The position numbers were made by a program, and so were the translations under genes. Positions 1 through 31,079 of a DNA stretch of 64,000 nt are shown piece after piece. The notes under the pieces were generated by a model. It was not told the origin of the DNA. It saw nothing but the letters and a program-made list of their open reading frames with translations, and ran no database searches. Each line of letters starts with the position of its first letter. The first letter of the stretch is position 1. This DNA is from Candidatus Omnitrophota bacterium (GTDB lineage: Bacteria > Omnitrophota > Gorgyraeia > Pluralincolimonadales > Pluralincolimonadaceae), in the NCBI GenBank assembly GCA_041651455.1, contig JBAZJG010000001.1, forward strand, positions 77,173 to 141,172, given 5' to 3'.

Positions 1-3000
1 GCAACTAATGCTTTAGATGATATGAGAACTGCACAAAATTTATTGAAGGAAGTGGAGGAGTTTCTCGGTGTGGGAGTAGTGGCGGTATTGGCAGACGCTG
101 GGGGAGGTAAGACACAAATGTCGGCTCAAATTACTGCGCCTCAAACCGATAGACCTGCTGGTATTCTCCTCCATGGCAGAAATCTCCATAGAGGGCAAAC
201 ACTTAATGACCTTGCACACCATTTTTCCATTAATGGCGTGTCCCTTAACAGTATGGAAAATTTGTTGGCAGCATTGGATGCTGCTGGTAAACGTGCAAGA
301 TGTCGCCTTCCAGTAATAATCGATGGACTTAACGAAGCAGAAAATCCTAGAGACTGGAAAGCACCGTTAGCTAGTCTTGGGGTAACTATGAAACGTTACC
401 CTAATGTTCTGGTGGTTTGCACACTACGTACAGGAGAACGTCGCAGAGATGAACAGCAATGGCAGCCACGACTACAAACAAATAATAGAGAGTCGTTTGC
501 AATTATGGCGCTTCCTGATGAGATGCGAAGAGTCGAGAGTGAAGGGTATGGCGAAGATGTTTATGAAGCTGTCGAGAAATATTTCCGATTTTTTAAAATC
601 AATCCCGGGGATGCCGAGATTCCTTTTGATCTCTTCCAGCATCAGCTTACGTTAAGAATATTTTGTGAAGTTACTAATCCCAGGCAGGAATCTGAAGTAA
701 GAGTTGATTATTTTCAGGCACTCTTGTCGCCACTTTTTGAAAAATATGTCACAAATGCTTGCATCCGTATTTCGGAAATGACTAATCTTAAACGTTCGTA
801 TAGTATTGATGAGTTAAGATCAGTTATCTTTAAACTTGGGGTTGAAATGTGGACCGCCCAACATCGAGAAATTAGCGAAAATCATTTTAGAAATACCGTG
901 TTAGATGCTCCGGATTGGGATAGCAGCGTTGTTAATCTATTCGTGCAAGAGGGGATTATTTTCCGAAATCCGGGAGATACTCCGGATGATTTCTTAATCA
1001 CACCTGCTCATGATGCACTTGGTGGGTATCTAATTGCCAAATCTTTACTTGAGAAGTACCAAAATGACACAACGTTCGAATGGCTTAAGAAACAAGATAC
1101 CATCGCTTTATTTAGCAGTGATAACAGTCATCCGTTAGCAGTGGACATTTTTAAATCGTTAGTTTCACTGACTCCGCGATATTTTCATGGTAGCAATCTC
1201 TGGAGAAAAACTTCAGTCTTTTCTGATGCAGCTTTGAGATTTACAGTAGATATTGAACCAACATACATCGATCAGGATACTACTGAGGCCTTGCTTAAAC
1301 TCTTGAAGGATGAACCTAAGAGGCGAAACTTTCTGTTTTCTCGAATTCGAAGAACTAGAAGTGCTGTCAATCATCCGTTAAATGTCAATTTTCTAGATTC
1401 TGCCCTTAAATTAATGTCTATTAACGAAAGAGATTTAAGTTGGACCGAGTGGATAAGAGAAACTCGAGCGGAGAAATTTAAGGATTTGCTCGCGATGGAG
1501 TTACGTTGGAAGCAAGACTTAAGTATGCGAACTCCAGCAGATCAACTTCGTGCAAAATGGATAATGTGGCTTTTGACTTCTACTGACCACGAACTCCGAG
1601 ACATAGCTACGCGCGCTCTTTATTGGTTCGGACGTGGAAATCCTGAATCACTTTTTGCGGAGAGTTTAAATTCACTTAATATTAATGATCCATACGTTCC
1701 GGAACGAATGCTTGCGGCTAGTTATGGTGTCATGATGGCTAAACAAGTCGATTTGACTAACCAGGCATTTGTAAATACTATTTTGCCTAAATATGCGCGC
1801 AATCTTTACGATTCGATATTTGCAAAGGGCGCATCTTTTAGCACAACTCATCTCTTGATGCGTGAGTATGCAACTAGGGTCATTGAAGTTGCAGTATTAC
1901 ATAATCCGAAACTTTTTAACGCAGAAGAGATCAGGAGAACTCAATCGCCATTCTTGGATGGCGGAATTCGCGAATGGGGAGAGAATACAACTTTGAAGGA
2001 AAGTCACGGGGGAGACTCGCCGTTTCGAATGGATTTCGAAAACTACACGATTGGTAGTTTGGTACGAGAACGCAGTAATTACGACTACAAGCATGAAGGC
2101 TATCAAGAAATACGAGCGAAAATTTTGTGGAGAATCGAGCAACTGGGATGGTCTAGTAATCAATTTAAAAATGTAGATGATTCTATCGCTAGTAGCCAAC
2201 ATTGGGGACGAACAAGTCATGATGCAAAGAAAATTGATCGTTATGGAAAAAAGTATTCTTGGATAGCTTTTTTTGAAATGTCTGGATTCTTGAATGATAA
2301 AAGCATTTTGGAAGATTGGCGAGAACGTACCTCTTCTGTAGACATTGATCCCAGTTTCCCTGAGCGCGTTATTAAGGAACGTTTTATTAAGGCTGATTTC
2401 CTTGGTGATCAGCAAATGGACACGAAAGAGTGGATTGCCAATGGTCCGTTACCAGATGTGGGGCCTTGTTTCCGTGTAGCTAAAGTTCAATCTTTAAAAG
2501 GACCCTGGGTCGCTTTGGATGGATTCGTTGTTCAAGAAGACAAAAAGCGCGGTCGAAGAATATTCTGCTTTATTCGTAGCCTTATCGTTGCTAATCGAGA
2601 TGCTCGATCCATACTAAATTATTTGCGTAAGCAAAACATGGGCGGGCGTTGGTTACCGGAAAAACCATCTGTGATTTATACATTCGCTGGAGAAATACCT
2701 TGGTGCGAGACTTTCCCGAAGAACGGGGCTTGTGAAATGTCATTTGTAACAAAAGAAAAAAAAGTGAAAGTTTTGCAGTCCAATCCGGAGTTATATTTAG
2801 ATGGGAAAAAGTTGGGATTGACTCAAATAGAATTGATCCAACATCGTTTATTCGGAACGATTAATGAAAAAGAGAAAATCTCAAATGACTTAAGTGACGA
2901 AGATATCGAGCGCGTTGAAGTTCGAGAAAGCCAGGTCGAAGTCGAGGAGATAAAAAAAGAATTTAAGAAATTCAATGTTTTAATTCCTGTTTGCGATTTT

Positions 3001-3360
3001 GGATGGGAAGGATATCAAACTGAAGCAAGTGATGCGGGGCATGCTACTACGTTAGCCAAGGAAATAGCTTTTGATTTAGAGTTAATTGGACAACCACAGA
3101 CGTTTGATCTATTTACGAAAGATGGTAAGCGTAGCACGCTTAATGTTTCTGACCAGAGCGGCGATTACAATAATCATCAATCTATGTTTTTTATCCGGGA
3201 AGATTTGCTTAAAACATATCTTAAGAAAAATAATTCTACGATGATTTGGGCAGTTTGGGGAGAACGAGAGTATTCCTATGACCAGCTTGAGAAACTCCGG
3301 AATGATCCAAATCGTCCGGCACAGACATATGCTGTGTATAGTTTCATAAAAAAGTATTGA
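1..3360 (+). CDS. NACHT/STAND-family P-loop NTPase, 5'-truncated. The reading frame is open to the window start with no in-frame stop upstream of the ATG at 22. The product is longer than 1112 aa; the C-terminal repeat/sensor region is unassigned.
   Basis: Walker A ADAGGGKTQ near the visible N-terminus and the NACHT-type Walker B PVIIDGLNEAEN are both present. The protein is large and multidomain, and the segment is strongly AT-rich compared with everything downstream. Confidence 0.5.
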   Translation, partial: ATNALDDMRTAQNLLKEVEEFLGVGVVAVLADAGGGKTQMSAQITAPQTDRPAGILLHGRNLHRGQTLNDLAHHFSINGVSLNSMENLLAALDAAGKRARCRLPVIIDGLNEAENPRDWKAPLASLGVTMKRYPNVLVVCTLRTGERRRDEQQWQPRLQTNNRESFAIMALPDEMRRVESEGYGEDVYEAVEKYFRFFKINPGDAEIPFDLFQHQLTLRIFCEVTNPRQESEVRVDYFQALLSPLFEKYVTNACIRISEMTNLKRSYSIDELRSVIFKLGVEMWTAQHREISENHFRNTVLDAPDWDSSVVNLFVQEGIIFRNPGDTPDDFLITPAHDALGGYLIAKSLLEKYQNDTTFEWLKKQDTIALFSSDNSHPLAVDIFKSLVSLTPRYFHGSNLWRKTSVFSDAALRFTVDIEPTYIDQDTTEALLKLLKDEPKRRNFLFSRIRRTRSAVNHPLNVNFLDSALKLMSINERDLSWTEWIRETRAEKFKDLLAMELRWKQDLSMRTPADQLRAKWIMWLLTSTDHELRDIATRALYWFGRGNPESLFAESLNSLNINDPYVPERMLAASYGVMMAKQVDLTNQAFVNTILPKYARNLYDSIFAKGASFSTTHLLMREYATRVIEVAVLHNPKLFNAEEIRRTQSPFLDGGIREWGENTTLKESHGGDSPFRMDFENYTIGSLVRERSNYDYKHEGYQEIRAKILWRIEQLGWSSNQFKNVDDSIASSQHWGRTSHDAKKIDRYGKKYSWIAFFEMSGFLNDKSILEDWRERTSSVDIDPSFPERVIKERFIKADFLGDQQMDTKEWIANGPLPDVGPCFRVAKVQSLKGPWVALDGFVVQEDKKRGRRIFCFIRSLIVANRDARSILNYLRKQNMGGRWLPEKPSVIYTFAGEIPWCETFPKNGACEMSFVTKEKKVKVLQSNPELYLDGKKLGLTQIELIQHRLFGTINEKEKISNDLSDEDIERVEVRESQVEVEEIKKEFKKFNVLIPVCDFGWEGYQTEASDAGHATTLAKEIAFDLELIGQPQTFDLFTKDGKRSTLNVSDQSGDYNNHQSMFFIREDLLKTYLKKNNSTMIWAVWGEREYSYDQLEKLRNDPNRPAQTYAVYSFIKKY

Positions 3361-3482
3361 TTCTACGGGGAAAACTAAAGGCGCCATTTTTTTATAAAGA
3401 GCCGATGAACGAATAAGATGTTTTGGTCGTTTTTTAACCGAAGGTTATGAAAAACAGAGATGCGCAAAATCATTGAAAACAT

Positions 3483-5519
3483 ATGAACGATAATCAGATA
3501 CAAAGAAATAAAATATTTCTAGTTACCTTCGGCTGCCAGATGAATTTCCGGGATTCGGAGGAGATAGCCGGTTTATTCATGAAGAAGGGGTATGCCCTTG
3601 CGGATTCCCCGGAAGAGGCGGATGTCGCTATATTCAATACCTGCTCGGTCAGGAAGCATGCCGAGGACCGCGCGATAAGCAACATAGGCGAGCTGAAGGC
3701 GCTGAAGAAGAAGCGCCCCGGCATGGTCATAGGCGTAGTCGGTTGCATGGCGAAGGCGCAGGGCGACAAAATAATCGAGAGGCTGCCGATAGTCGATTTT
3801 ATCGCCGGCCCCGCCAACATCTATGATATCCCCGGCATAGCCGAAGGCATACTCGCGGAGAGGAAAGAAGCCGTCATTGCGACGGATAAGAACGCGCGGC
3901 CGTACGTCGGCAACATAGCCTACCATACAAAGGGCATTTCGGCCCTCGTTACGATAATGGAGGGCTGCAATAATTTCTGTTCTTACTGCATCGTGCCATA
4001 CGTAAGGGGGCGCGAGGTCAGCAGGCCGTCCGGCGATGTCATTGAAGAGATCAGGGCGCTCGCGGAGTGCGGCTACAAAGAGGTCACATTGCTTGGGCAG
4101 AACGTGAATTCGTATACGGATTTCACGGGATTGCTCAAAGAGATAAACGGTGTAACGGGCATCGAGCGGATACGGTTCCTGACGAGCCATCCGAAGGATG
4201 CGGGGGAGGATCTCTTCAGGGCGATGCGCGACCTGCCGAAGGTATGTGAGCATCTTCATTTGCCCTTGCAGTCCGGTTCTGATAGAATACTTAAGTCGAT
4301 GAACAGGGGATATACGTCATCTGATTATCTTAAGAAGGTCGAGATGCTGCGCAAACATGTCCCCGATTGCGCGATAACAACAGATGTCATAGTGGGGTAC
4401 CCCGGCGAGTCCGATGAGGATTTCGGGAAGACCAAAAAGCTTATCGAGGATATAGGGTTCAACTCGGCATTCATATTCAAGTATTCGCCGCGGCCTCCGG
4501 CGAAGGCGAGCGGCCTCGAGGATGATGTCCCGAAGAAAACGAAGGAAGAACGCAACCAGGCGCTTCTCAGGCTGCGCGATAAGATATCTGACGCGAAGGA
4601 CAGGGAGTTCGTAGGCAGGCAGACGGAGGTCCTTGTCGAGAGCATATGCAGAAAGGAAAAGCATAAAGTGACGGGCAGGAACAGGCAGAACATAAAGGCG
4701 GTCTTCGAAGGCGGCAGGGAGCTGATAGGGACGCTAAAAAATGTAAAGGTAAGCTCGGTCGTCGGGCATACGCTCGCGGGCGGCGCGCTGATGTTCATGG
4801 TATTATTCGCGGCAGCCGCGGCAGCGGCGCCCGTTTTCGCGGAGACGGTCGAGGAATATTTCGTCGGCGGCGATTACGAGAATACGGTACGAGAAGGCGT
4901 AAAGCAGGTCGGCAATTCAAAGGAACAGGATAAGCTCTATTATATGATAGGCACAAGCCTGAACAAGATCGGCAGGTATGACCTCGCGAGGAAGAACTTC
5001 AACCAGCTCGTGAGCGCATTTCCCCGCAGCAGGTTCTGCCCGCTGGCACAGCTCGGTATCGCGGACAGCTATTACCTTACCGGGGATTATAAGAACGCGT
5101 TCACGGAGTATGAAAAATATATGACGAAATACCCTAACGCCGGGGGCGGCGCGACAGCGTATTTCAGGCTCGCGAAGAGCGCGCAGAAGGAAGGCAAATG
5201 GCAGGCCGCGCGCAACTATTACCAGAAAGTGAAAAGCGAATTCCCGATGAGTTTCGAGGCGCAGATGGCCGCGCAGGCCCTAGGCGATGAGATACTCTTC
5301 TTTACCGTGCAGGTCGGATCCTTCAACAAGAAGTCGAACGCCCTGAAGCTCTGCGATGAGCTTGTGAAAAAAGGGTACGAGGCGTCGATAGTGAAGCCGG
5401 AACAGCCGGGTGAGGGGTCCTACAAGGTCCGCGTAGGAAAGCTCGACGCGAGGGAAGGGGCGGAAGAACTCGCGAAGAGACTGCGCGCCGAGGGCCTGCC
5501 CACCAAAGTCCTGCCTTAA
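3483..5519 (+). CDS. miaB: tRNA-i6A37 methylthiotransferase MiaB. It is fused in-frame, with no stop codon, to a signal-peptide/TPR/SPOR-domain module that begins at ATG 4791.
   Basis: The N-terminal 436 aa have the MTTase N domain, radical-SAM motif CNNFCSYC, and the TRAM ending ...GTLKNVKVSSVVGHTLAGGAL. The next residue starts MFMVLFAAAAAAAPVFA-ETV, a signal-peptide-like stretch with an AxA site. TPR-like repeats follow, then a SPOR-type motif (FTVQVGSF...YKVRVGKL). Confidence 0.85.
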   Translation: MNDNQIQRNKIFLVTFGCQMNFRDSEEIAGLFMKKGYALADSPEEADVAIFNTCSVRKHAEDRAISNIGELKALKKKRPGMVIGVVGCMAKAQGDKIIERLPIVDFIAGPANIYDIPGIAEGILAERKEAVIATDKNARPYVGNIAYHTKGISALVTIMEGCNNFCSYCIVPYVRGREVSRPSGDVIEEIRALAECGYKEVTLLGQNVNSYTDFTGLLKEINGVTGIERIRFLTSHPKDAGEDLFRAMRDLPKVCEHLHLPLQSGSDRILKSMNRGYTSSDYLKKVEMLRKHVPDCAITTDVIVGYPGESDEDFGKTKKLIEDIGFNSAFIFKYSPRPPAKASGLEDDVPKKTKEERNQALLRLRDKISDAKDREFVGRQTEVLVESICRKEKHKVTGRNRQNIKAVFEGGRELIGTLKNVKVSSVVGHTLAGGALMFMVLFAAAAAAAPVFAETVEEYFVGGDYENTVREGVKQVGNSKEQDKLYYMIGTSLNKIGRYDLARKNFNQLVSAFPRSRFCPLAQLGIADSYYLTGDYKNAFTEYEKYMTKYPNAGGGATAYFRLAKSAQKEGKWQAARNYYQKVKSEFPMSFEAQMAAQALGDEILFFTVQVGSFNKKSNALKLCDELVKKGYEASIVKPEQPGEGSYKVRVGKLDAREGAEELAKRLRAEGLPTKVLP

Positions 5520-5520
5520 T

Positions 5521-6438
5521 ATGTCGAATAAGCTGGTGTTCATCGTAGGCCCCACGGCGATAGGCAAGACCGGCATATCGTTCGAGCTCGCTAAGCTGGT
5601 AGAATGCGAGATAATATCGTGCGATTCGATGCAGGTCTACCGGGGCATGAACGTCGGCACGTCCAAACCGGCGAAGGTCCTGCTTAGTTCCATACCGCAT
5701 CATCTCGTCGATATAATAGAGCCGTCCGAGGAGTTCTCGGTCGCGCAGTTCCGCGCGCTGGCGGTAAAAGCCATAGAAGACATAATATCCCGCCGCAAGA
5801 CGCCTCTCCTGGTCGGCGGCAGCGGCCTCTACGTGAAGGTCCTTATAGACGGCATATTCGAGGCGCCCGTGACCGACAGGGAGCTAAGGCAAAGGCTTGA
5901 GCAGGAGGCGGAGGAATTCGGCGTCGGGCAGCTTTACGCGCGATTGACCCAAGTTGACGCGGAGGCGGCGAAAAAGATCCACGCCAACGACCTGCGGAGG
6001 ATAATCAGGGCGCTGGAGGTCTTCGAGAAAGCGTCGGCGCCGATATCCGAACTCAGGAAGAAGACATCCGGGCTCGGGGATAAATACGACGTAAGGATAT
6101 TCGGGCTCGAGATGGAACGCTCGGCGCTGTATGATAAGATAGACGAAAGGGTCGAGCAGATGTTCTCCGAAGGCCTGGTCAACGAGGCGAGGGCCCTGAT
6201 GGAGGGGAAACTCAGCCTGACCGCGTCGCAGGCGCTCGGGTACAGGGAAGCCTTTGGTTATCTTGCGGGCGACTACGACATTGAGGAAGCCAAAAGATTG
6301 GCTAAGAGGAATACAAGGCATTTCGCGAAAAGGCAGATGACGTGGTTCAAGCGCGACCCGCGCATTGAATGGATAATGCTTGAAAAGGATTTCGATACAG
6401 AGGAGAAAGCAAGGGCGATATGGAAAAAGCTCTCTTAG
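5521..6438 (+). CDS. miaA: tRNA dimethylallyltransferase MiaA
   Basis: The P-loop [11 protein letters not shown] and the motifs [17 protein letters not shown] are present; the size is 305 aa and it lies immediately after miaB. Confidence 0.9.
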
Positions 6439-7682
6439 TAACCGTAGAATTCTTCGACAAGAAATATAAGGACACATGGCGGCTCGACGATATCAATTTC
6501 GAGCTCAGGGAGCTTGTGAGGTCGGCGGGACTGCAGGTCGTAGACCTTATAGAATGCTTCAAGGACAAACCGGTTGCCGGGCATTATATAGGGAAGGGGA
6601 AAGCCGAGGAGATTAGTTCTATCTGCAAGGATAAAGGAGCCGATGTCGTGATATTCGGCGATGACCTGACTTCTTCGCAGCAGCAGAACCTCGAGGAGTC
6701 GATAGGTGTAAAGGTCATTGACAGGACGCAGCTCATACTCGATATTTTCGCGCGAAGGGCCCATTCGACCGAAGGCAAGGTGCAGGTAGAGCTCGCGCAG
6801 CTCGAATACCTGCTGCCGCGCCTCAAGGGAAAGGGCATCATGCTCTCGCGGCTCGGAGGCGGCATAGGCACGAGGGGCCCCGGCGAGCAGAAACTCGAGA
6901 TGGACCGCAGGAAGATAAGGGAGAAGATCTCGAGACTGAAAGACGATCTCTCAAAGATCCACGAACGCAGGGGAGAACTCCGGCGCAGGCGCCATGAGGG
7001 CGAGATCTCGATAATATCGCTGATAGGATATACGAACGCGGGAAAATCGACGTTGTTGAACGCGCTCACGGATTCGGACGTGCTGTCGCAGGACAGGCTC
7101 TTCTCAACGCTGGACCCGACCGCGCGCAGGTTCGTGCTGCCGAACAACCAGAAGGTCGTCTTCGTAGATACGGTCGGTTTCCTGCACAGGCTCCCGCACC
7201 ATCTCATAGAGGCGTTCAAGGCTACGCTGGAAGAGGTTGCCGAAGCGGATATAATAATACATGTCCTCGATGCGTCGAGCCCGATGGTGCATGAGCTCAG
7301 CCAGGCGGTATACGAGGTGCTCGAAGAGCTGGATATACGAGATAAGACGATAATAACTGTGCTGAATAAGTCAGATAAGGTAGAGGACAAAGCGGTCATC
7401 TCGAGGTTACTGCGCGAATTCGACAACTCCATAGCGATATCGGCCCTGAAGAAGGAGAACCTGGAAGAGCTCGTCCAACGGGTCTCGATGATTTTGTTCG
7501 CCTCGCTCGTCTATGTAAAAGCCGTAATCCCGCAATCGGAAGGCAAGCTCCTGAGCCAGATCTACAAGGAATCCAGCATAATAAGCCGCGACTTCAAGGG
7601 TGAGTGCGTCTACCTGGAAGCGGATATGCCGGTCCGTCTAAAAAATTTACTTGACAAAAAAGGCTTTTGTGATAAACTCTAG
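6420..7682 (+). CDS. hflX: GTPase HflX
   Basis: It has the HflX N-domain and the G-domain motifs [19 protein letters not shown] and NKSD, and its start overlaps the miaA end by 19 nt. Confidence 0.9.
7651..7678 (+). promoter_or_regulatory. Sigma70-like promoter (TTGACA-16 nt-TAAACT) lying in the 3' end of hflX, directly upstream of CIRCE
   Basis: TTGACA sits at 7651-7656 and TAAACT at 7673-7678. This position is the one expected for the heat-shock operon promoter. Confidence 0.45.
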
Positions 7683-7709
7683 TTAGCACTCGGGCGAAAT
7701 GAGTGCTAA
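7683..7709 (+). promoter_or_regulatory. CIRCE operator (HrcA binding site), a perfect TTAGCACTC-N9-GAGTGCTAA
   Basis: The sequence ttagcactc gggcgaaat gagtgctaa is an exact match to the CIRCE consensus and sits immediately 5' of hrcA-grpE-dnaK-dnaJ. Confidence 0.9.
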
Positions 7710-8769
7710 TGGGGAAAGCCAAATGGTTGTAACCGATTATATATCAAGGAGAAACAACATCCTCGAGGTGGTTGTCGATTCTTATGTATCGACCGCCGCC
7801 CCGGTCGGCTCACTTGCCGTTTCCAAGAAGCTAAGGGAGCGCCTGAGCCCGGCGACAATCAGGAATATCATGTCCGAACTGGAAGAGGTCGGCTATATAA
7901 TGCATCCGCACACCTCGGCCGGAAGGATACCCACGGACAGGGGATACAGGTATTTCGTCGATTCGATAATGGAGCCGAAGCAGCTGACCCAGGACGAGAA
8001 GGAGTTCGTCGAAGGCGCCTTGAGCCAGGAGGCGGATGAGCTTGAGGACCTTATAAAGAGGGCGGCGCGCATAGTATCGGGGCTGACGGGACAGACATCT
8101 ATGGTCAGCTTCCCGAGGGCGAAGAGAAGGACCTTCAAGAGGATAGAGCTTATCCCCGCGACGAGGACGAAGGTATACGCATTGCTCTTCACGGCGCAGG
8201 GGCTCGTGAAGCACTCGATATTCGAGATACACGAGACGCTCGAGGAGTCGGAACTCTCGAAGGTGTCGAAGTTCCTGAACGACGAGCTCGACGGCCTGCA
8301 GCTGAACGAGATCGCGGACCACCTGCTCAGGAGGGTCATAGGGGAGAACGACCCGTTCCACCACCTGTTCAAGGAGGCGACGGAGCTGCTCAACATGTCG
8401 CATATCCTCGAGGACAGCGGCGAGAGGATATTGCTCGACGGCGCGCACCATATGATGGAGCAGCCGGAGTTCAGGGACTCGGACAAGGTCAAGCGCCTGC
8501 TGAAGATACTCGAGGAAGAGGAAGAGATCCTCGATATAATGGACCAGGACATGAACGAGCAGAACGCAAGGATACATATAGGTTCGGAGAACCCCTACGA
8601 TGACATCAGGGAATGCAGCATAGTGATATCGAATTACAGGATAGGCAACAGGAACGTCGGCAGCATCGGCGTGATAGGGCCGACAAGGATGGACTATACG
8701 AGGGCCGTCCCCGCCGTTGAATTCGTAGGCAACGCGTTCAGCAGGCTCCTTACAAGGCTAAGCGAGTAA
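7699..8769 (+). CDS. hrcA: Heat-inducible transcription repressor HrcA. The true start is probably ATG 7723, because ATG 7699 lies inside CIRCE.
   Basis: The wHTH region PVGSLAVSKKL...SPATIRNIMSELEEVGYI...SAGRIPTDRGYRYFVD is typical of HrcA, and the gene sits at the operon position expected for hrcA. Confidence 0.85.
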   Translation: MSANGESQMVVTDYISRRNNILEVVVDSYVSTAAPVGSLAVSKKLRERLSPATIRNIMSELEEVGYIMHPHTSAGRIPTDRGYRYFVDSIMEPKQLTQDEKEFVEGALSQEADELEDLIKRAARIVSGLTGQTSMVSFPRAKRRTFKRIELIPATRTKVYALLFTAQGLVKHSIFEIHETLEESELSKVSKFLNDELDGLQLNEIADHLLRRVIGENDPFHHLFKEATELLNMSHILEDSGERILLDGAHHMMEQPEFRDSDKVKRLLKILEEEEEILDIMDQDMNEQNARIHIGSENPYDDIRECSIVISNYRIGNRNVGSIGVIGPTRMDYTRAVPAVEFVGNAFSRLLTRLSE

Positions 8770-8772
8770 TAT

Positions 8773-9306
8773 ATGGATGAGCATAAGAAGGTAAAGATAA
8801 CCGAGGAAGAACTGTCCGCGCTGAAAGAGAGCGCGGCAAAGGCGGAAGAATGCGCCGAGAAGATGCTGCGGATGCAGGCGGATTTCGAGAACAGGAAGAA
8901 GAGGCAGGATAAGGAGAAACTGGATTTCCTGAGGTTCGCGAACGAGGGCATCATCACGGAGCTGTTGAGGGTAATGGATGATTTCGAGCGCGCTATCGAC
9001 TCGGCGAAGAATACGAACGACACGAAGGTGCTGCTGCAGGGGATCGAGATGGTCAGGCGCGACTTCGAGGATATACTGAAGGAGAACGGGCTTAAGGTGA
9101 TCGACCCCGCCGGGCAGCCGTTCGACCCGGAGAAGCACGAAGCGGTGGAGCACGTAGAGGATGTGGTTCACCCCGAGAATACCGTGCTCGAGGTCATGAG
9201 GAAAGGGTATGAGCTTAACGGAAAGGTTTTGAGGCCGGCGGCAGTGAAGGTCTCGAACAAGAAGGAAGAAGAAACTACGGAAGAAAAATCAGAGGAGGAA
9301 AAATAA
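8773..9306 (+). CDS. grpE: Nucleotide exchange factor GrpE
   Basis: GrpE-like coiled-coil and C-terminal beta domain are present, and it lies between hrcA and dnaK. Confidence 0.88.
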
Positions 9307-9307
9307 A

Positions 9308-11239
9308 ATGGCAAGAGCGATCGGAATAGACCTCGGTACATCGAACTCGGCTGCGGCGGTGATGGAAGGCGACCGCCCGGCGATAATACCGTCCGCGGAA
9401 GGCGCGGGCGTGGCCAGCGGGAAGGCGTTCCCGTCTTATGTGGCTTTCACGAAGGACGGACAGCGCCTCGTAGGCGAACCCGCGCGCAGGCAGGCCGCCA
9501 TCAACCCGGAAGGCACGATACAGGCCGCGAAGAGGAAGATGGGCACCGACTTCAAGTTCGGCGTATACGGCAAGGATTATACGCCGCAGCAGATATCGGC
9601 GTTCATCCTCCAGAAGATCAAGCAGGACGCGGAGGCATACCTCGGAGACACAGTCAACGAGGCGGTAATAACATGCCCCGCTTATTTCAACGATAACCAG
9701 CGCCAGGCGACGAAAGACGCCGGCGAGATCGCGGGGCTCAAGGTCCTGCGTATAATCAACGAGCCTACGGCCGCATGCCTCGCGTACGGGATCGACAAGG
9801 CCGAAAAAGAGATGAAGATAATGGTCTTCGACCTCGGCGGCGGTACGCTCGATGTCACCATCATGGAAATGTGGTACGACAAGGAGCAGAAGGCGAGCGG
9901 TTTTGAGGTATTGTCCACGAACGGCGATACCCAGCTCGGCGGCACCGACATGGATAACGCGTTGATAGAATACCTCGTCGGGACATTCAAGCGCGAGACC
10001 GGCATCGACCTCAAGAACGACAAGATGGCGGTCCAGAGGTTGCGCGAGGCGGCCGAGAAGGCGAAGGTCGAGCTCTCAAGCACCCTGCAGACCGACATCA
10101 ACCTGCCGTTCATCACGGCCGACGCGGGCGGGCCGAAGCATTTCACTCATACGATAACCCGCGCAAAACTCGACGACCTCGTGTCGCCGATAGTCAACCG
10201 CTGCCGCGCCCCGATGGAGAACGCGGTAAAGGACGCGAAGCTGACGATGAACGACATAGCAAGGGTAATACTCGTCGGCGGCCCGACGCGCATGCCGATA
10301 ATCCAGAAGTTCGTAGAGGATTACGTCGGCAAGAAGATAGAGCGCGGAGTGGACCCGATGGAGTGCGTCGCCCTGGGCGCCGCGATACAGGCGGCCGCGC
10401 TGAAGGGTGAGATAAACGACATACAGCTCTTGGACGTCACACCGCTTTCGCTGGGCATCGAGACGCTAGGTGGTGTTTTTACTAAATTAATCGAAAGAAA
10501 CACTACCATACCGACCAGGCAGAGCCAGACATTCTCTACCGCGGCGGACAACCAGCCGGCAGTCACGGTGCGCGTGCTGCAGGGCGAACGGCCTATGGCC
10601 AACGACAATGTTGAGCTCGGACGCTTCGACCTCGTGGGTATCCCGCCGGCGCCGAGGGGCATGCCTAAGATAGAGGTCACCTTCGATATCGACGCGAACG
10701 GAATTGTCCATGTCAACGCGAAAGACGTAGGCACGGGTAAGGAGCAGTCGATAAAGATCACGGCTCCGAAGAAGCTGTCGAAGGAAGAGATAGACCGCAT
10801 GGTCAAGGAAGCCGAGAAGTTCGCTTCCGAAGACACAAAGAAGAAGGAAGAGATTGAGACCGTAAATCAGGCTGATATGCTGGTTTATCAGACCGAGAAG
10901 CAGCTCAAAGATTACGGCGACAAGGTCAGCCAGCAGGACAGGGCCAATATAGAGACGGGTCTCAACGACCTGAAGCAGGCGATAAAGGACAAGAATGTCG
11001 ACCGCATCAAGAAGTCGATGGAGTCGCTGCAGCAAGCGTCGTATAAACTCGCCGAGGAGATATACAAGGCGAGCTCCCAAAAAGGTCCTCAGGGAGGCCA
11101 GCAGGAAGGTCCGCAGGCGGGCCCCGAGCAGCCGCAGGGCGGCCCGGCCGGAGAGGCAGGCCAGGAAGGCGGCACCAAGAAAGACGACATCATCGACGCC
11201 GAGTTCCGCGCGGATGATGAGGATAAAAAGAAAAGGTAA
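9308..11239 (+). CDS. dnaK: Molecular chaperone DnaK (Hsp70)
   Basis: Hsp70 signatures [23 protein letters not shown] and the Gly/Gln-rich tail are present. Confidence 0.97.
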
Positions 11240-11251
11240 TACATAAGAAAT

Positions 11252-11348
11252 CTTGAAATCCGGGTTTCACTTGGCCTTATTTATTACTCGCAGCATGCGA
11301 TAGCAACTGCGTCATAAACCGGCTCTGCGTGAAACACCGGATTTCAAG
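11252..11348. repeat. Long-range inverted repeat in the dnaK-dnaJ spacer, with a nested inner hairpin
   Basis: The 19-20 nt arms are cttgaaatccgggtttcac at 11252-11270 and gtgaaacaccggatttcaag at 11329-11348. An inner cgcag...ctgcg palindrome lies between them. Confidence 0.6.
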
Positions 11349-11374
11349 TATGCTTATGCATTAACATTTTATTT

Positions 11375-12538
11375 ATGGCAGACAAGCGCGATTACTATGA
11401 AATACTCGGCGTGCAAAAGAGCGCCGGGGCGGATGAGATAAAGGGCGCCTACCGGAAGCTGGCGCTCAAATACCATCCCGACAGGAACCCTGCAGACAAG
11501 AAGGCCGCGGAAGAGAAGTTCAAGGAACTTTCCGAGGCCTATGCTGTTTTATCGGATCCGCAAAAGAGGGCGCAGTACGACCAGTTCGGCCACGAGGGCA
11601 TAGATTCGCGCTACACGCGCGAGGATATCTACCGCGGCGCGGACTTCTCGAGCATATTCGAGGACCTCGGTATGGGAGGCATCGACCTCGAGGATATACT
11701 TGGCGGCATATTCGGCGGCGGCCACGGGATGTTCGGAGGGCAAAGGGCAGGCGCTGGAGGCAGGCGCCGCGGGTCGGACCTTCAGTTCGACCTGGAGATA
11801 AGCTTCATAGAAGCGGCTTTCGGCACTTCGAAAGAGTTCGTGGTGCCGCGCCACGAGATGTGCCAGGCATGCAAGGGCGAAGGCACCGCGCCCGGGTCAT
11901 CCCGCCAGGCGTGCTCAAAGTGCGGAGGAAGGGGCCAGGTACAGTCCTCGCAGGGATTCATGTTCTTCTCGCGGCCGTGCGACAAGTGCGGCGGGGAAGG
12001 AAGCATCATAACGAAGCCGTGCCCTAAATGCAGGGGCGCCGGCAGGACGGTCGTAGACAGGAAGATAACGGTCAAGATACCCGCCGGCATTGAGAGCGGT
12101 ATGCGGCTGCGCGTCGCGGGCGAAGGCGAGGCCGGCCAGCGCGGAGGCCAGCGCGGAGACCTTTACGTCCTCGTTTACGTGAGGCCCCACGAGATCTTCG
12201 AACGCCACGGCAGCGACATATTATGCGAAGTACCGATCTCGATGATAGACGCCGCACTAGGTACAGAAGTCGAGGTCCCTACGCTCAAGAGCAGGGTAAA
12301 AATGAAGGTCCCACCGGGTACCCAGAGCGGCAAGATATTCAGGCTCAGGGGCGAGGGGATAGCGGATGTCCATTCCGGAGTCCGCGGAGACGAGCATGTC
12401 CGTGTGATAGTCGAGACGCCGACGGCGGTCAACGAAGCCCAGAAGCGCATCCTCAGGGAGTTCGCCAAGGCCTCGGGCGAGGAGACCTTCCCCAAAGCCG
12501 CCTCATTCATCAAGAAGATAAAGAGCTTTTTCAGGTGA
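11375..12538 (+). CDS. dnaJ: Molecular chaperone DnaJ
   Basis: The J-domain [14 protein letters not shown], a G/F-rich region and four CxxCxGxG zinc-finger repeats are present. Confidence 0.95.
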
Positions 12539-12626
12539 ACGCCTCCTGCAAAGGCAGGTTCCGCAGGCTCCTGATTTTTTGGTTCCCAGTCATAGCATAT
12601 TGTGTTATAATCTTTATCGGTTCCGC

Positions 12627-12906
12627 GATGGAAAAGCCGCTCCCTGAGACACAGATCCCGCAGCTGGACAAATTCCTGCATGTGGTAGAATTCGGGGGGC
12701 TGTGTTTCCTGTTGATGCGGGCGCTTAAAGGAAGCTTCGCGGAGATGCCCCGCAGGATGGTCTTCATCATCGCGGTATCCTGCACAGTTCTGTACGGCGC
12801 CTCGGACGAAGTCCACCAGCTGTTCGTCCCGGGCAGGGTCAGCAGCATTATCGACTTGTTTTTTGATTCCCTCGGAGCGCTTATAATAGGCCTGATAAAA
12901 AAATGA
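12627..12906 (+). CDS. VanZ-like family membrane protein; start uncertain. The conserved N-terminal TM helix is encoded upstream of the first downstream ATG, 12627, in the same frame.
   Basis: Four predicted TM helices are present, together with the VanZ-type motif ...YGASDEVHQLFVPGRVSSIIDLFFDSLGALI. The only other in-frame ATG, at 12223, would overlap dnaJ by 316 nt. Confidence 0.45.
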
Positions 12907-14207
12907 CGATAATCAAACCGTTCAACGGCTACAGGTACGATACCCGCAAGACGGGAAAGCTTTCGAAGGTTATCACCCCTCCTTATGATGTCATAAACCC
13001 CAAACAGCAGGAAGCGTATTACCGCAAACACCCGGAAAATTTCATCCGCCTAGATCTCGGGAAGAAATACGCGAAGGACGACAGGGATGATAACAGGTAT
13101 ACGAGGGCCGCGAAGGCTCTCGAGGAATGGATAAGCAAAGGGATACTCGCGAAGGACCGCGAACCCTCGATATACGTCTACAGCCAGGAATATACGATAG
13201 GCGGGAGGAGGAAGGCGCGGCTCGGTTTCATCTCGCTCGCAAAGCTCGAGGAGGACCGCACGAAAGGGTTCCTGCCGCACGAGCGCACGTTCAAGGGGCC
13301 TAAGCTCGACAGGCTCAACCTGATGAAAGAGACCGGCGCGAACCTGAGCCCGATATTCTCGATAGTCTTCGACGATAACAATAAGATAATGGGTATACTG
13401 AAGCGCGTCTCGAGAAGCCGGAAGCCGGCGATAGACGTCGCGTTCGAAGGGACTAGGAACAAGGTCTGGCGCATGACGGACCCGGCGCTTATCAGGAAGC
13501 TCGAAGGCCTCATGTCGAAGAAGAAGGCGCTTATCGCGGACGGCCACCACCGCTACGAGGTTGCGCTGGAATACAAAGTCCTGAGCGAAGCGAAGGGCAA
13601 GGCCCCGCAGGACTGCCGCAGCGCCCTGAGCGAAGCGAAGGGTTACGTAATGATGTATTTCGCGACATCCGACCCGAAAGGGCTCGCGATACTTCCCACA
13701 CACCGCATGCTCGAAGGCGTATCAGCCAAAGACCTCCTGAAGAATTCCGGCAAATTAAAAGAATATTTCGATATCATAAAGGTATACGGCAGGAAAGGCA
13801 TGCTCGCGTGCATGAAACGCTGCGGCGGGCACGTAATAGGAGTATTCCTCGGAGGGAAGGACTACCTTTGCCTTAAACTGAACAGGGCGGACGCAAGCTC
13901 GCTCATAAGATCGGAGAACTCCTCCTACTGGAGGAACCTCGACGTGGTAATATTGCACCAGCTTGTCTTCGATAAGGTGCTGGGGCTTAAAGGCGAAAAA
14001 GCTGAAAAGGCGATAACGTTCACGAGGGACCCGGAAGTAGCGTTCAAATGGGCGGCCGGCAGGGGCAAGAGGATATCATTCTTTCTGAACCCGCCGTCGC
14101 TGAAAGATATCTATAACATAGTCAGGTGCCGCGAGCGGATGCCGCATAAGACGACGTATTTCTTCCCGAAGCCGCCGTCGGGCCTCGTCATCAACAGGCT
14201 GGAGTGA
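12903..14207 (+). CDS. DUF1015 family protein
   Basis: The N-terminus PFNGYRYD...VITPPYDVIN matches the DUF1015 signature, and the 434 aa size fits. Confidence 0.55.
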   Translation: MTIIKPFNGYRYDTRKTGKLSKVITPPYDVINPKQQEAYYRKHPENFIRLDLGKKYAKDDRDDNRYTRAAKALEEWISKGILAKDREPSIYVYSQEYTIGGRRKARLGFISLAKLEEDRTKGFLPHERTFKGPKLDRLNLMKETGANLSPIFSIVFDDNNKIMGILKRVSRSRKPAIDVAFEGTRNKVWRMTDPALIRKLEGLMSKKKALIADGHHRYEVALEYKVLSEAKGKAPQDCRSALSEAKGYVMMYFATSDPKGLAILPTHRMLEGVSAKDLLKNSGKLKEYFDIIKVYGRKGMLACMKRCGGHVIGVFLGGKDYLCLKLNRADASSLIRSENSSYWRNLDVVILHQLVFDKVLGLKGEKAEKAITFTRDPEVAFKWAAGRGKRISFFLNPPSLKDIYNIVRCRERMPHKTTYFFPKPPSGLVINRLE

Positions 14208-14208
14208 C

Positions 14209-15045
14209 ATGTTCGGAAAACCCAAATATACGATAGTCAAAGTTGCGAAAAAGAAAGACATCCCCGAAGGACTCTGGACAAAATGCGAGGACTGCGGGGA
14301 TATCATATATAACAAGGCGCTCGAGGAGAACATGAAGGTCTGCCCGAAATGCGATTACCATTTCGTGCTTACCGCCCACGAAAGGATCGCGATGCTCATG
14401 GACGAAGGCAGCTTCGAGGAACGTGATTCCGCCCTGAGGCCGATGGACCCGCTTCTCTTCAAGGGCCCGCGCTCCTACGAGGATAAGCTGAAAGAGGACC
14501 AGATAGCCACGGGCCTTACCGAGGCCTGCATAAGCGGCAGGGGTTCGATCGAAGGCAAGAGGGTCATACTGGTAGTCACGGATTCGCGTTTCATAATGGG
14601 GTCGATGGGATCCGTCGTGGGCGAAAAGATAGCCCGCGCGACGGAGCTCGCGACGAACCTCCGCTTGCCGCTGGTCATAGTATCGGGTTCAGGCGGAGGC
14701 GCAAGGATGTATGAAGGGCTCTTCTCGCTGATGCAGATGGCAAAGACCTCGGCCGCCATCGCGAAACTGCATGAGGCCGGCGTGCCGTATATCTCCGTCC
14801 TGACCAACCCGACGATGGCCGGCATCATGGCAAGCTTCGCGTCGCTCGGGGACGTGATAATAGCAGAGCCGAAGGCGCTTATAGGGTTTACTGGGCCCAG
14901 GGTAATCGAGCAGACGATAAGGCAGAAGCTCCCGCCGGGTTTCCAGCGCTCCGAGTTCCTGCTCGAGCACGGGCTGCTGGACATGATAATGCACCGGAAG
15001 ACCCTTAAACCCGGAATTGCCCAGTTAATAGAGTTCTTGACCTAA
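14209..15045 (+). CDS. accD: Acetyl-CoA carboxylase carboxyltransferase subunit beta (AccD)
   Basis: The N-terminal Zn-ribbon CEDCGDII...CPKCDYH is followed by a carboxyltransferase domain. Confidence 0.9.
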   Translation: MFGKPKYTIVKVAKKKDIPEGLWTKCEDCGDIIYNKALEENMKVCPKCDYHFVLTAHERIAMLMDEGSFEERDSALRPMDPLLFKGPRSYEDKLKEDQIATGLTEACISGRGSIEGKRVILVVTDSRFIMGSMGSVVGEKIARATELATNLRLPLVIVSGSGGGARMYEGLFSLMQMAKTSAAIAKLHEAGVPYISVLTNPTMAGIMASFASLGDVIIAEPKALIGFTGPRVIEQTIRQKLPPGFQRSEFLLEHGLLDMIMHRKTLKPGIAQLIEFLT

Positions 15046-15097
15046 TTTAACTTATGTAGTATCATTGACTTAAATATACTTACTTAAGGAGGTTCAA

Positions 15098-16201
15098 ATG
15101 GCTCAGGTAAGTCTCAGGCATGTCTCAAAGATCTATTCCGGCAACGTCAGGGCTGTCTCGGACGTAACGCTCGGCATAGAGAACAAGGAATTTGTGGTCT
15201 TCGTCGGCCCTTCCGGGTGCGGAAAGTCGACGACATTAAGGATGATAGCGGGCCTCGAGGAGATATCCGAGGGCGAGATATATATAGGCGACAAGCTCGT
15301 CAACGATGTCCCCGCAAAGGACCGCGATATCGCGATGGTCTTCCAGAATTATGCGCTCTATCCGCATATGACGGTATACGAGAACATGGCTTTCGGCCTG
15401 CGCCTTCGTAAGTATTCAAAGGCGGAGATAGACCAGCGCGTCAAGGAAGCCGCCCAGACGCTCGGGATAGCCAAGTACCTCAACAGGAGGCCGAAGGAAC
15501 TCTCCGGCGGCGAGAGGCAGAGGGTGGCCGTAGGGCGCGCGATAGTAAGGAAACCGCTCGTCTTCCTGTTCGATGAGCCGCTTTCGAACCTCGACGCGAA
15601 GATGCGCGTGCAGATGAGGACCGACATAAACAAGCTGCATACGCGCCTGCAGTCGACTATGATCTATGTCACGCACGACCAGACCGAAGCCATGACGCTG
15701 GGCAACCGCATCGTAGTCATGAAGGACGGCGTCGTGCATCAGGTCGCAGACCCCATATCCCTCTACGACAAGCCGGTCAACAAATTTGTAGCGGGCTTCA
15801 TAGGCAGCCCTCCGATGAACTTCCTGAACGGCAGGCTCATCAAGACGGACGGGAAGTTCCATTTCGACGAAGGGACGTTCAGGATAAGGATAGTCGATGA
15901 TATGGTGCCGAAGGTCTCGGCCTATGAAGGGAAAGAGATCATTTTCGGAATCAGGCCGGAGGACATTTATGACAAGCTGTTCGTCCAGGAGGCCGCGCCG
16001 GAGAACACGGTCACGGCAAGGGTCGATGTAGTCGAGCCTATGGGTTCGGAAGTCTACCTGCATATGGCGACTCCAAAACAATCGTTCACAGCGCGCGTCG
16101 GTGGCCACGATAAGCCCGAAGTCAACCACGATATAGACCTCGTGTTCGACATGTGCAAGTTTCATTTCTTCGATAAGGACACCGAGAAAGCGATAGCCTA
16201 G
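15098..16201 (+). CDS. Sugar ABC transporter ATP-binding protein (MalK/UgpC/MsmK family), with no adjacent permease
   Basis: Walker A GPSGCGKST, the signature LSGGERQRVA, a Walker B, and a C-terminal MalK-type regulatory (TOBE) domain are present. A strong RBS aaggagg precedes the ATG. Confidence 0.85.
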   Translation: MAQVSLRHVSKIYSGNVRAVSDVTLGIENKEFVVFVGPSGCGKSTTLRMIAGLEEISEGEIYIGDKLVNDVPAKDRDIAMVFQNYALYPHMTVYENMAFGLRLRKYSKAEIDQRVKEAAQTLGIAKYLNRRPKELSGGERQRVAVGRAIVRKPLVFLFDEPLSNLDAKMRVQMRTDINKLHTRLQSTMIYVTHDQTEAMTLGNRIVVMKDGVVHQVADPISLYDKPVNKFVAGFIGSPPMNFLNGRLIKTDGKFHFDEGTFRIRIVDDMVPKVSAYEGKEIIFGIRPEDIYDKLFVQEAAPENTVTARVDVVEPMGSEVYLHMATPKQSFTARVGGHDKPEVNHDIDLVFDMCKFHFFDKDTEKAIA

Positions 16202-16202
16202 T

Positions 16203-19096: not shown

Positions 19097-19142
19097 AATA
19101 TATTGAAAAATCACGCGTTTTGAGTTAAGATTAACTCCTCAA

Positions 19143-20060
19143 ATGACGAAATTTGCTATAGGCATAGACCTCGGCGGCACGTATACCAAGCTCGCCCTTG
19201 TAAGCCCAAAAGGAAAGATCGTAGAGAGAGGCAGGCTGTCCACATCGGACCACCCGACCAGGGACGGGTTGCTGCGGGCTATTGCTTCCGAGATAGGTAT
19301 CCTCCTTAAGAGGGCCCGGGTACCCCGAAGCCGCGTAAAGGGAGTGGGAATAGGCGTGCCGGGGCTTGTGGATTTCAGCAAGGGCGTGGTTTACAACCTG
19401 ACCAACGTTAAGGGATGGAAGAACACGCCGGTCAAGAGGCTTCTTGAAAATAAGCTTAAAATACCCGTGCTTGCGGATAACGACGTCAACGTCATGGCGC
19501 TCGGTGAATGCAGGTTCGGCGCCGGCAAGGGAGCCGTTAATGCGGTCTGCATAACGCTCGGTACCGGCGTCGGCGGCGGCGTTATCATAGGCGGCGGGCT
19601 TTACCGCGGATCTACTTTCTCGGCCGGTGAGGTGGGGCATATGCCGCTTAAGGAAGACGGACTAAAGTGCAACTGCGGCGGTTACGGATGCCTTGAAAGA
19701 TATGTGGGCAACAGGCGTATTTCGGAAGAGTACAGGTCGATGAAGAAGGGCACAGCGGCCCTTATGAGCCCCGAGTCGATTAGCATCGCGGCAAAAAAAG
19801 GCGACAAGACGGCGATCGAGCTCTGGGACAGGGTGGGCAAAAGGATCGGAACGACGCTCGCGGGTATAGTGAACCTGCTGAACCCGGAGATGATCATAGT
19901 CGGCGGCGGCGTGGCGGAGGCGGGAGAGCATCTCTTTGGCCCCATGCGCGAGACAGTGAAAAGACGTGCGATGAAGATACCAGGCGGTGCCGTAAAGATA
20001 GTAAAGGCGAAGCTGGGCAACGACGCCGGCGTAATAGGGGCTGCGGCCCTTTTCTTTTAA
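19143..20060 (+). CDS. ROK family sugar kinase (glucokinase-like)
   Basis: The ATP site IGIDLGGTYTKLAL and the ROK Zn motif CNCGGYGCLE are present. Confidence 0.8.
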   Translation: MTKFAIGIDLGGTYTKLALVSPKGKIVERGRLSTSDHPTRDGLLRAIASEIGILLKRARVPRSRVKGVGIGVPGLVDFSKGVVYNLTNVKGWKNTPVKRLLENKLKIPVLADNDVNVMALGECRFGAGKGAVNAVCITLGTGVGGGVIIGGGLYRGSTFSAGEVGHMPLKEDGLKCNCGGYGCLERYVGNRRISEEYRSMKKGTAALMSPESISIAAKKGDKTAIELWDRVGKRIGTTLAGIVNLLNPEMIIVGGGVAEAGEHLFGPMRETVKRRAMKIPGGAVKIVKAKLGNDAGVIGAAALFF

Positions 20061-20085
20061 CAATATAAACGATCGGAAACGGGAA

Positions 20086-22356: not shown

Positions 22357-22372
22357 ATAAGGCAGGAGACCT

Positions 22373-23671: not shown

Positions 23672-23674
23672 AAG

Positions 23675-28032: not shown

Positions 28033-28036
28033 ACTG

Positions 28037-28987: not shown

Positions 28988-28991
28988 TAAT

Positions 28992-31051: not shown

Positions 31052-31079
31052 AAACCCCTTCCGATATCATTATTTCCCC

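Follow-up and report, generated by a model that had tools for sequence, protein, structure and literature searches.

Characterised MiaB proteins, among them that of Bacteroides uniformis (PDB entries 7MJV–7MJZ), are soluble enzymes of about 440–470 amino acids (aa) that end a few residues past the last strand of the TRAM domain. The Escherichia coli proteins FtsN, DamX and DedD consist of a cytoplasmic N-terminal part, a single hydrophobic segment and a periplasmic C-terminal SPOR domain. A window of 64,000 nucleotides from a Candidatus Omnitrophota bacterium (contig JBAZJG010000001.1, positions 77,173 to 141,172), the whole stretch of DNA analysed here, contains a miaB reading frame whose product goes on for 245 residues beyond MiaB, through an internal segment resembling a signal peptide, into tetratricopeptide repeats (TPR) and a SPOR domain. 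Judging by its homologues, this fusion is genuine and has been vertically inherited in one clade of Omnitrophota (type A). The reading given most weight, with a probability of roughly 55%, is that the inherited fusion is made as one chain, the C-terminal part of which is exported and cut off by signal peptidase I after A453. To our knowledge, the joining of a cytoplasmic iron–sulphur (Fe–S) enzyme to a periplasmic cell-wall module through an internal export signal is uncommon in bacteria. We found no published description of a MiaB/TPR-SPOR fusion: the literature search returned no paper pairing MiaB with a SPOR domain, and the Omnitrophota genome paper mentions neither.

The 678-aa open reading frame (ORF) has no in-frame stop, either in the ORF list or in the raw sequence. 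Its product (P0010) agrees from end to end, at 100% identity, with the 678-aa NCBI protein MFA5164016.1, which is encoded on a 230,773-bp contig and named only ‘MiaB’. Residues 10–433 match the MiaB equivalog model TIGR01574 with 468.4 bits (cut-off 355.3) over model positions 1–434 of 437, and residues 8–433 align with residues 17–452 of the 457-aa B. uniformis MiaB (7MJV). Since this alignment reaches residue 452 of 457, the MiaB part is complete and includes the last TRAM strand, ..GHTLAG (aa 428–433); the Pfam TRAM model gives no match at E < 0.01. Foldseek superposes the N-terminal part on MiaB 7MJX with a template modelling (TM) score of 0.93 and a root-mean-square deviation (RMSD) of 1.9 Å. 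The six Fe–S cysteines (C18, C54, C88 and C162/C166/C169) are kept in every fused homologue that covers those columns. By every sequence and fold criterion applied, the N-terminal part is thus recognisable as MiaB; its putative activity is the methylthiolation of i6A37 to ms2i6A37 in tRNA. The context supports this role: miaA begins 1 nt downstream, its product makes the substrate of MiaB, and the synteny with miaA is kept in all related loci.

The C-terminal part gives equally distinct matches. Within about aa 480–600, Pfam identifies TPR_6 (63 bits), YfiO (39 bits) and TPR_16, and solved structures of natural proteins that match include YbgF (2XEV, E = 4.7e-9) and CpoB (6G5S, E = 1.4e-4). 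The SPOR model PF05036 matches aa 607–671 with 51 bits (cut-off 21), and the SPOR domain of CwlC (1X60) is found with E = 8e-5. The stop-free passage from miaB into a signal-peptide/TPR/SPOR protein, described in the original prediction, is therefore borne out by domain matches on both sides of the junction. An AlphaFold2 (AF2) model built from 56 sequences has a mean predicted local distance difference test (pLDDT) value of 89.8 and is confident for MiaB up to residue 435 and for TPR-SPOR from residue 456 onwards. The SPOR part has a β-α-β-β-α-β secondary structure (strands 607–614, 634–637, 647–654 and 675–677; helices 617–629 and 657–669), and the TPR part superposes on Xanthomonas YbgF 2XEV with a TM score of 0.87 and an RMSD of 1.7 Å. 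Residues 438–453 have pLDDT values below 50 and no secondary structure. No solved structure spanning both MiaB and TPR-SPOR is present among the Foldseek matches. Because each half yields strong, independent domain matches, the read-through is far beyond chance. Homology places the TPR-SPOR half in an uncharacterised family of secreted TPR-SPOR proteins, one JGI fragment of which is named ‘TolA-binding protein’; membership of the SPOR family suggests that this half binds denuded (septal) peptidoglycan.

At the junction, the raw DNA reads ..GGC GGC GCG CTG ATG TTC ATG.. without a stop, codon 437 of the fused ORF being ATG 4791. The MiaB match ends at ..GHTLAG, and the hydrophobic stretch that follows ends in V-F-A, so the TRAM boundary and AxA-type ending proposed earlier are in place. 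Segment G434–A453 (GALMFMVLFAAAAAAAPVFA) is uncharged and ends V-F-A/E-T, where the slash marks the predicted cut, followed by the acidic run E-T-V-E-E-Y-F. It can be described as LMFMVLFAAAAAAA, then P, then V-F-A/E, which fits a hydrophobic (h-) region of about 7–15 residues with small residues at −3/−1; the −3/−1 rule puts the predicted signal peptidase I site after A453, between nucleotides 4841 and 4842. What the segment lacks is the N-terminal position and the positively charged n-region of a signal peptide: 433 MiaB residues precede it, and there is no K/R between H429 and the h-region. A lipoprotein signal (L-[AS]-[GA]-C) was also considered and rejected, as the window segment contains no Cys and the Cys residues of its relatives (LFCG, MFCN etc.) do not fit a lipobox.

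An (A/V/L/I)-x-A site is present in 36/36 fused sequences while the surrounding residues vary freely; the variants are VFA, VSA, ARA, AKA, ANA, ADA, AAA, VAA, VKA, ASA and AIA, with LFA, AFA and VFA in the second fusion type (type B, described below). The uncharged run is 11–23 residues long in the fused sequences, mostly 13–17, and Gly, Pro or Ser are often among them; in most cases a polar c-region comes next, and then an acidic mature N-terminus. This size class is the same as in standalone TPR-SPOR relatives, where the uncharged run of 78 evident N-terminal signal peptides has a median of 14.5 residues (range 10–24). The segment is homologous to the signal peptide of the standalone family.

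The same in-frame junction occurs at nine independent DNA loci, namely the window and loci L012–L019. The latter are independent metagenome-assembled genomes and metagenome contigs; the fused loci come from different projects and assemblers, and one lies on a 504-kb contig of UBA6215. In L013 to L019, stop-to-stop ORFs of 660–776 codons hold both halves, with identities over a 278-residue junction query of 97, 86, 73, 75, 63, 63 and 59%, in that order. In L012, the same junction lies in a 459-codon frame, and the ORF is broken by a frameshift elsewhere in miaB. MiaB and TPR-SPOR share a tblastn frame in each of L012–L019; the junction codons differ among the fused loci, and the length of the segment changes in multiples of three. 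A search with the junction and C-terminal part also returned proteins of 60–71% identity that pass from ..GHTLVG.. through a hydrophobic segment into TPR-SPOR. A full-length search added about 27 further 90%-identity clusters (59–100% identical, 552–895 aa) with radical SAM and SPOR Pfam domains. In total, about 30 protein clusters carry the fusion, down to 59% identity, and one of them is present on 14 contigs from four sources. The arrangement that the original prediction named as a refutation, orthologues uniformly having two separate genes, is thus not seen within the clade, where the fused in-frame junction is kept.

When the MiaB core is placed in a neighbour-joining tree, a rough method that gave a clean grouping here, the fused proteins with TRAM (type A) are monophyletic. 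The two halves diverge in step, the identities for MiaB and TPR-SPOR being 76/77% in L016, 72/67% in L017 and 63/63% in L019; together with the conserved Fe–S cysteines and the confident AF2 model of both parts, this indicates that both halves are maintained by selection. Loci L021–L025 of Smithella/Deltaproteobacteria and Cloacimonadota were tried as relatives and discarded, their match being limited to the TPR repeats and no miaB lying nearby.

The neighbourhood of miaB in other Omnitrophota points to the origin of the fusion. A backbone of miaB ... miaA-hflX-hrcA-grpE-dnaK is common across the phylum and has a variable slot after miaB. In L026/L027, the slot is occupied by an inositol phosphatase and there is no TPR-SPOR gene. 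In L004/L005, TPR-SPOR is a gene of its own, 70 bp away from miaB, and its product begins with a classical signal peptide (MKRIIIFLLAL..AYA). In L029, the two genes share 16 nt at the end of miaB but are read in different frames, and TPR-SPOR has a Shine–Dalgarno (SD) motif as well as a signal peptide starting MCKK. Thus, at the three loci examined (L004, L005 and L029), the standalone gene lies just downstream of miaB. When the mature part was searched against 1.84 billion cluster representatives, about 100 standalone relatives of 240–285 aa were found at 30–41% identity, their match beginning at residue 25–55; only two representatives in that search were clearly fused, P0018 (type A) and P0194 (622 aa). 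All 78 standalone proteins with an evident N-terminal signal peptide carry K/R in an n-region of about five residues. As the standalone genes adjoin or overlap miaB, the fusion is to be read as a merger of two adjacent genes. The ancestral state was evidently miaB with a neighbouring gene for a secreted TPR-SPOR protein of about 250 aa that had its own Sec signal peptide; in the clade of the window, comparison with these genes indicates that miaB lost its stop codon and the neighbouring gene its start codon and charged n-region. The h-/c-region of the former signal peptide now follows directly on the last TRAM strand (..GHTLAG).

A second form of the fusion, type B, is about 40% identical (P0039, P0041, P0061, P0070, P0085 with 44 members, and P0115) and is found at the same syntenic locus (L028). 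Its MiaB has no TRAM, and the h-region directly follows the ..RRNQxLLxLQ helix; the arrangement looks like an overlap of the L029 type merged through a small indel. Type B does not group with type A in the MiaB tree, and the two genes therefore appear to have joined at least twice. P0046, known from one short contig, keeps TRAM and also contains, in frame, an MRR signal peptide that is complete; this could represent a third joining or an error.

MiaB without TRAM is widespread in Omnitrophota in its own right. It occurs as a standalone protein of 384–396 aa (L004, 363..1553; L029, 91..1245) or fused directly to the signal segment, as in all the type B representatives named above, and the loci checked are all miaB-miaA. 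Such proteins raise the question of how tRNA is recognised.

In one groundwater lineage, the two halves are separate again. The gene at the miaA locus encodes TPR-SPOR alone and lies behind an MBOAT gene (P0003, six contigs); its N-terminus reads MVKISSIFCHTLVGGLVAF..NEVNA/QT or, in a longer form, MVKISSIFCHTLVGGLVAFTVLFVPAFFNEVNA/QT. MiaB is found at another locus in the same samples (ERZ28563625, ERZ27254763), where it ends at a stop codon after ..FCHTLVGGLIEK or, in the longer form, after ..KINSVFCHTLVGGLIEK. A 62-bp direct duplication of 90% identity is shared by the two loci within one sample, ERZ28563625 (L031, 3655–3716; L006, 2437–2498), and therefore points to a fused ancestor that split with both halves surviving. 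In this lineage, the segment has to all appearances become an ordinary N-terminal signal peptide, its n-region being a vestigial TRAM tail. L002/L020 represent a second split with a different breakpoint, the vestige ..FGHTLVGS and a different gene upstream; by these marks it is independent of the split that left the 62-bp duplication.

In the cleavage reading, the 678-aa chain would be translated as one polypeptide, with MiaB folding in the cytoplasm. The emerging hydrophobic segment (aa 434–453) would engage the signal recognition particle and SecYEG in an N-in/C-out orientation, and the C-terminal 225 residues would be translocated. Signal peptidase I would then cut after V-F-A453. The TPR-SPOR protein set free in this way would be soluble in the periplasm, would have ETVEEYFVGGDYENTVR as its predicted semi-tryptic N-terminal peptide and, with its YbgF-like TPR module, would probably bind septal (denuded) peptidoglycan. 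MiaB would keep a short C-terminal hydrophobic tail; more speculatively, it could either stay at the inner face of the membrane or be freed once this tail is broken down in the manner of spent signal peptides. Short h-regions with a −3/−1 site are cut by signal peptidase I, and long h-regions are uncleaved signal anchors. Conservation of the −3/−1 site favours cleavage, since an uncleaved anchor gives no reason to conserve it. The strongest indirect support for a cleavable signal comes from the N-terminal use of the segment in the re-split lineage, and release of TPR-SPOR seems, on the whole, more likely than permanent tethering.

Several points weigh against this reading. The cleavage call is based on the −3/−1 rule and on the length of the h-region, and the window segment is the least typical of its kind: it is uncharged over a long stretch (20 residues, 23 if the LAG tail of TRAM is included), contains an Ala run and, Pro450 aside, lacks a polar c-region, and might for these reasons remain in the membrane as an anchor. 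There is almost no linker between TRAM and the h-region, which could hinder tRNA binding or membrane insertion. ATG 4791 and ATG 4797 are placed just where the hydrophobic segment begins, and some independent initiation may occur there. Fusion, re-splitting and loss of TRAM recur in the phylum, and the fused state may be nearly neutral, a product of tight gene packing. Finally, all fused sequences are from uncultured organisms.

The alternative that survives best is a bitopic membrane protein whose segment is never cut and serves as a permanent N-in/C-out anchor, with MiaB tethered inside and TPR-SPOR in the periplasm, the topology of FtsN, DamX and DedD; such an anchor could place MiaB at the division septum. 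This is possible but doubtful for the clade as a whole, and it keeps substantial weight for the window protein itself, whose segment runs for 20 residues without a charge and without a polar c-region. The charges on either side obey the positive-inside pattern, with K/R-rich TRAM strands before the segment and acidic ETVEEY after it, and the order of cytoplasmic N-domain, transmembrane helix and C-terminal SPOR is generally shared by SPOR division proteins. A related methylthiotransferase, CDKAL1, is described as tail-anchored in the membrane of the endoplasmic reticulum, where a C-terminal hydrophobic tail holds it (Brambillasca et al. 2012 JBC, as cited in ref. 21 of PMC7545696). However, in most clade members the uncharged run has 13–17 residues and is broken by Gly, Pro, Ser or Cys, which is short for a stable span, and an uncleaved anchor leaves unexplained why a small-x-Ala site persists in every fused sequence despite divergent neighbours. 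Moreover, the standalone family has cleavable signal peptides to which the segment is homologous, the re-split lineage uses it at the N-terminus as a signal peptide, and it is not helical in the AF2 model. The genuine fusion, one of three readings among which the original prediction did not choose, is upheld by the nine loci, the roughly 30 clusters and the monophyletic clade; the stable membrane anchor that was attached to it probably needs changing, given the dimensions of a cleavable signal and the −3/−1 site.

Another alternative is that two proteins are made: ribosomes would start at ATG 4791 or 4797, and the read-through from MiaB would be incidental, its C-terminal extension being useless or degraded. 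This is improbable, although some features are in its favour. Besides the position of the two ATG codons, a Met is present at the junction in 16/30 clusters of the clade, and the type B protein P0085 has M-IKSQ immediately before the h-region. No AGGAGG-like motif precedes ATG 4791, as had been noted at the outset. This absence says little, because an SD-like motif is found in only 27/53 genes of the window, miaB and miaA being among those without one. Against internal initiation, translation from M437 would yield a protein without the charged n-region that is present in 78/78 standalone relatives, and in 14/30 type A clusters Met is absent from the stretch between ..HTLxG and the conserved EEYF. 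In L017 and L019, there is no ATG, GTG or TTG from the end of TRAM to the predicted cleavage site, and in L019 the preceding 19 codons are also free of them; TPR-SPOR would accordingly be makeable there only within the long chain. An internal promoter was rejected as well: a consensus scan found no promoter-like site near the junction (the plus-strand sites are at 4260–4288 and 4916–4943), and the four sites in the region are close to the 2.3 ± 1.5 of shuffled sequence. Independent initiation, the third reading offered by the original prediction, thus fails as a general need and may at most be an extra route in the window.

The least tenable explanation, an assembly artefact or pseudogene in which an indel near the G+C-rich run at 4775–4790 removed the miaB stop from two ordinary genes, the true stop being TGA 4789–4791, draws on the out-of-frame TGA that overlaps ATG 4791 as TGATG (4789–4793) and would become a classic stop/start overlap on removal of one base, on the separate, overlapping genes of related lineages and on the evident frameshift elsewhere in miaB of L012, but it is effectively refuted by the in-frame junction, which differs in DNA and length yet recurs at nine loci that were assembled in different projects with different assemblers, as well as in about 30 clusters, by the confinement of TGATG to the window and its two closest relatives, L013 and L014, and by the TRAM-tail vestige before the re-split signal peptide, which only a fused ancestor explains. 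Of the earlier suggestion of a lost stop codon or a sequencing error, the error is therefore dismissed, and the lost stop is retained as evolutionary history, in keeping with the adjacent or overlapping standalone relatives. Programmed +1 frameshifting to out-of-frame stops was also rejected; such stops are frequent throughout the region, and their positions are not conserved.

The features of the locus are collected in Table 1. Directly upstream of miaB lies a 1112-aa ORF (22..3360, plus strand) that probably continues off the left end of the window. Its GC content is 38–45%, against 51–59% in the following genes; it has no Pfam match, and PADLOC assigns it to Avs2, an antiviral STAND NTPase, with E = 4.6e-89 from profile position 348 on. 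It is likely a horizontally acquired defence gene. Across the window (1..64000), all large gene-like ORFs are on the plus strand and tightly packed, many of them with gaps of 1–20 nt or overlaps, which fits the idea that stop/start overlaps ease accidental fusions in this genome.

Table 1. Coordinates of the fused miaB reading frame, its parts and the genes that follow it (window positions).
Feature	Coordinates	Strand	Evidence or remarks
Whole fused ORF	3483..5519	+	MiaB, then internal signal-like segment, then TPR, then SPOR
MiaB N-terminal UPF0004 domain, aa 10–109, with cluster Cys C18, C54, C88	3510..3809	+	Pfam PF00919, 103 bits
Radical SAM core, aa 157–321	3951..4445	+	Pfam PF04055, 112 bits; fold match 7MJX, TM 0.93
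CxxxCxxC motif, C162/C166/C169	3966–3989	+	Inside radical SAM core
TRAM domain, about aa 376–433, last β-strand ..VVGHTLAG	4608..4781	+	TIGR01574; 7MJV alignment; AF2 strands 380–435
Internal signal-peptide-like segment, aa 434–453	4782..4841	+	h-region, Pro450, V-F-A
In-frame ATG 4791 and ATG 4797 (M437, M439)	4791..4799	+	Possible, unconserved internal starts; no SD-like motif upstream
Predicted mature part, first half: acidic ETVEEYF, then YbgF/CpoB-like TPR (helices aa 456–602)	4842..5288	+	Pfam; TIGR02795; 2XEV; AF2
C-terminal SPOR domain, aa 607–677, VQVGSF β-1 motif	5301..5513	+	Pfam PF05036; CwlC 1X60; AF2
miaA (tRNA isopentenyltransferase)	5521..6438	+	Pfam IPPT, 289 bits; start lies 1 nt beyond the stop codon of the fused ORF
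hflX	6420..7682	+	Overlaps the end of miaA; part of the backbone miaB..miaA-hflX-hrcA-grpE-dnaK

Some related records show further peculiarities. In L001 (1327..3417) and L003 (69..2387), the fused ORF has no gene on record; the sole recorded gene is a ‘SPOR/TPR’ gene of 204–224 aa that begins past the signal peptide, and the miaB part has none. The MiaB parts of both loci contain low-complexity insertions within the radical SAM domain, e.g. ..SPFRGQSLKGPQQSGVSPKGTSPF... The first 27 MiaB residues of L003 (69..150) and L004 (363..443) are identical (MPNQESKKSYEFFAPKVFIRTFGCQMN), and the remainder is about 54% identical (GCA_043798215.1 and GCA_022013075.1); this could reflect chimeric assembly, recombination or contamination. 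P0026, an 895-aa member of the fused clade from a Logan assembly, has a GIY-YIG nuclease domain (PF01541) before MiaB, within an N-terminal extension of about 200 residues; either another fusion or a gene call extended too far could account for it.

Whether or not the segment is cut, the fusion might be functional, as a Sec-processed polyprotein or as a permanent tether that brings a radical-SAM tRNA enzyme to the membrane. This is unlikely; it is supported by the repeated, independent joining of miaB to the same partner in type A, type B and possibly P0046. If true, the production or location of MiaB would be tied one-to-one to a septal peptidoglycan-binding protein, and the tuning of translational fidelity by ms2i6A would be linked to envelope growth and division in the ultra-small cells of Omnitrophota. 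If cleaved, the protein would be a rare natural case of one ORF giving two unrelated proteins in two compartments through the secretion machinery; if uncleaved, it would be the first membrane-tethered bacterial MiaB. The series of separate, overlapping, fused and re-split stages, the last with its 62-bp scar, makes the locus a useful case in nature for the study of fusion and fission of genes, and of how a signal peptide tolerates the loss of its n-region. Annotation pipelines lose either the periplasmic module, where the protein is named ‘MiaB’, or the enzyme, where only ‘SPOR/TPR’ is on record. The arrangement will be unexpected for specialists in tRNA modification or protein export; it resolves no long-standing question and, being built from known parts, is not a new kind of system.

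Each of these parts can be set beside a described counterpart. The N-terminal half shares with B. uniformis MiaB the three UPF0004 cysteines, CxxxCxxC, TRAM and fold, and has miaA adjacent. The C-terminal half is homologous over the mature region to the standalone TPR-SPOR proteins of Omnitrophota (P0009, P0130 and about 100 representatives), with h-/c-regions of the same size, and those of L004, L005 and L029 occupy the same miaB-miaA slot; unlike the fusion, they are encoded by separate genes and have a start codon, an SD motif and a K/R n-region of their own. The TPR of YbgF/CpoB, a Tol-Pal-associated coordinator of cell division, is the best natural match in both sequence and fold. Orthology to CpoB/YbgF was nevertheless rejected, since both curated cut-offs are missed (TIGR02795, 67 vs 90.1 bits; NF008068, 28 vs 383 bits), the N-terminal coiled-coil domain of CpoB is missing (the TPR helices start at residue 456 in the AF2 model), and the fused protein has a C-terminal SPOR domain that CpoB does not; only the TPR fold is YbgF-like.

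FtsN, DamX and DedD have a topology identical to that of the fused protein only if its segment is uncleaved, and they differ in their short, non-enzymatic cytoplasmic parts, uncleaved transmembrane helices and lack of a TPR module; identity with FtsN was rejected (TIGR02223, 22 bits against a cut-off of 107.65). An uncleaved chain would echo eukaryotic CDKAL1 of the MiaB/MtaB/RimO family, and MiaB left after cleavage would resemble this tail-anchored protein. CDKAL1, however, belongs to the eukaryotic MtaB-type subfamily (ms2t6A), has a true tail anchor and no lumenal domain, and is not a signal peptidase product. Another precedent for a cleaved chain is the Bradyrhizobium cytochrome b-c1 precursor FbcH, a bacterial gene fusion that combines two neighbouring functions in one ORF; cleavage of its internal signal sequence yields two mature proteins. 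If cleaved, the fused MiaB would resemble FbcH in this respect; the products of FbcH, however, are membrane subunits of one complex, whereas the halves of the fused MiaB have unrelated functions and different predicted compartments, and their separation by cleavage is a prediction.

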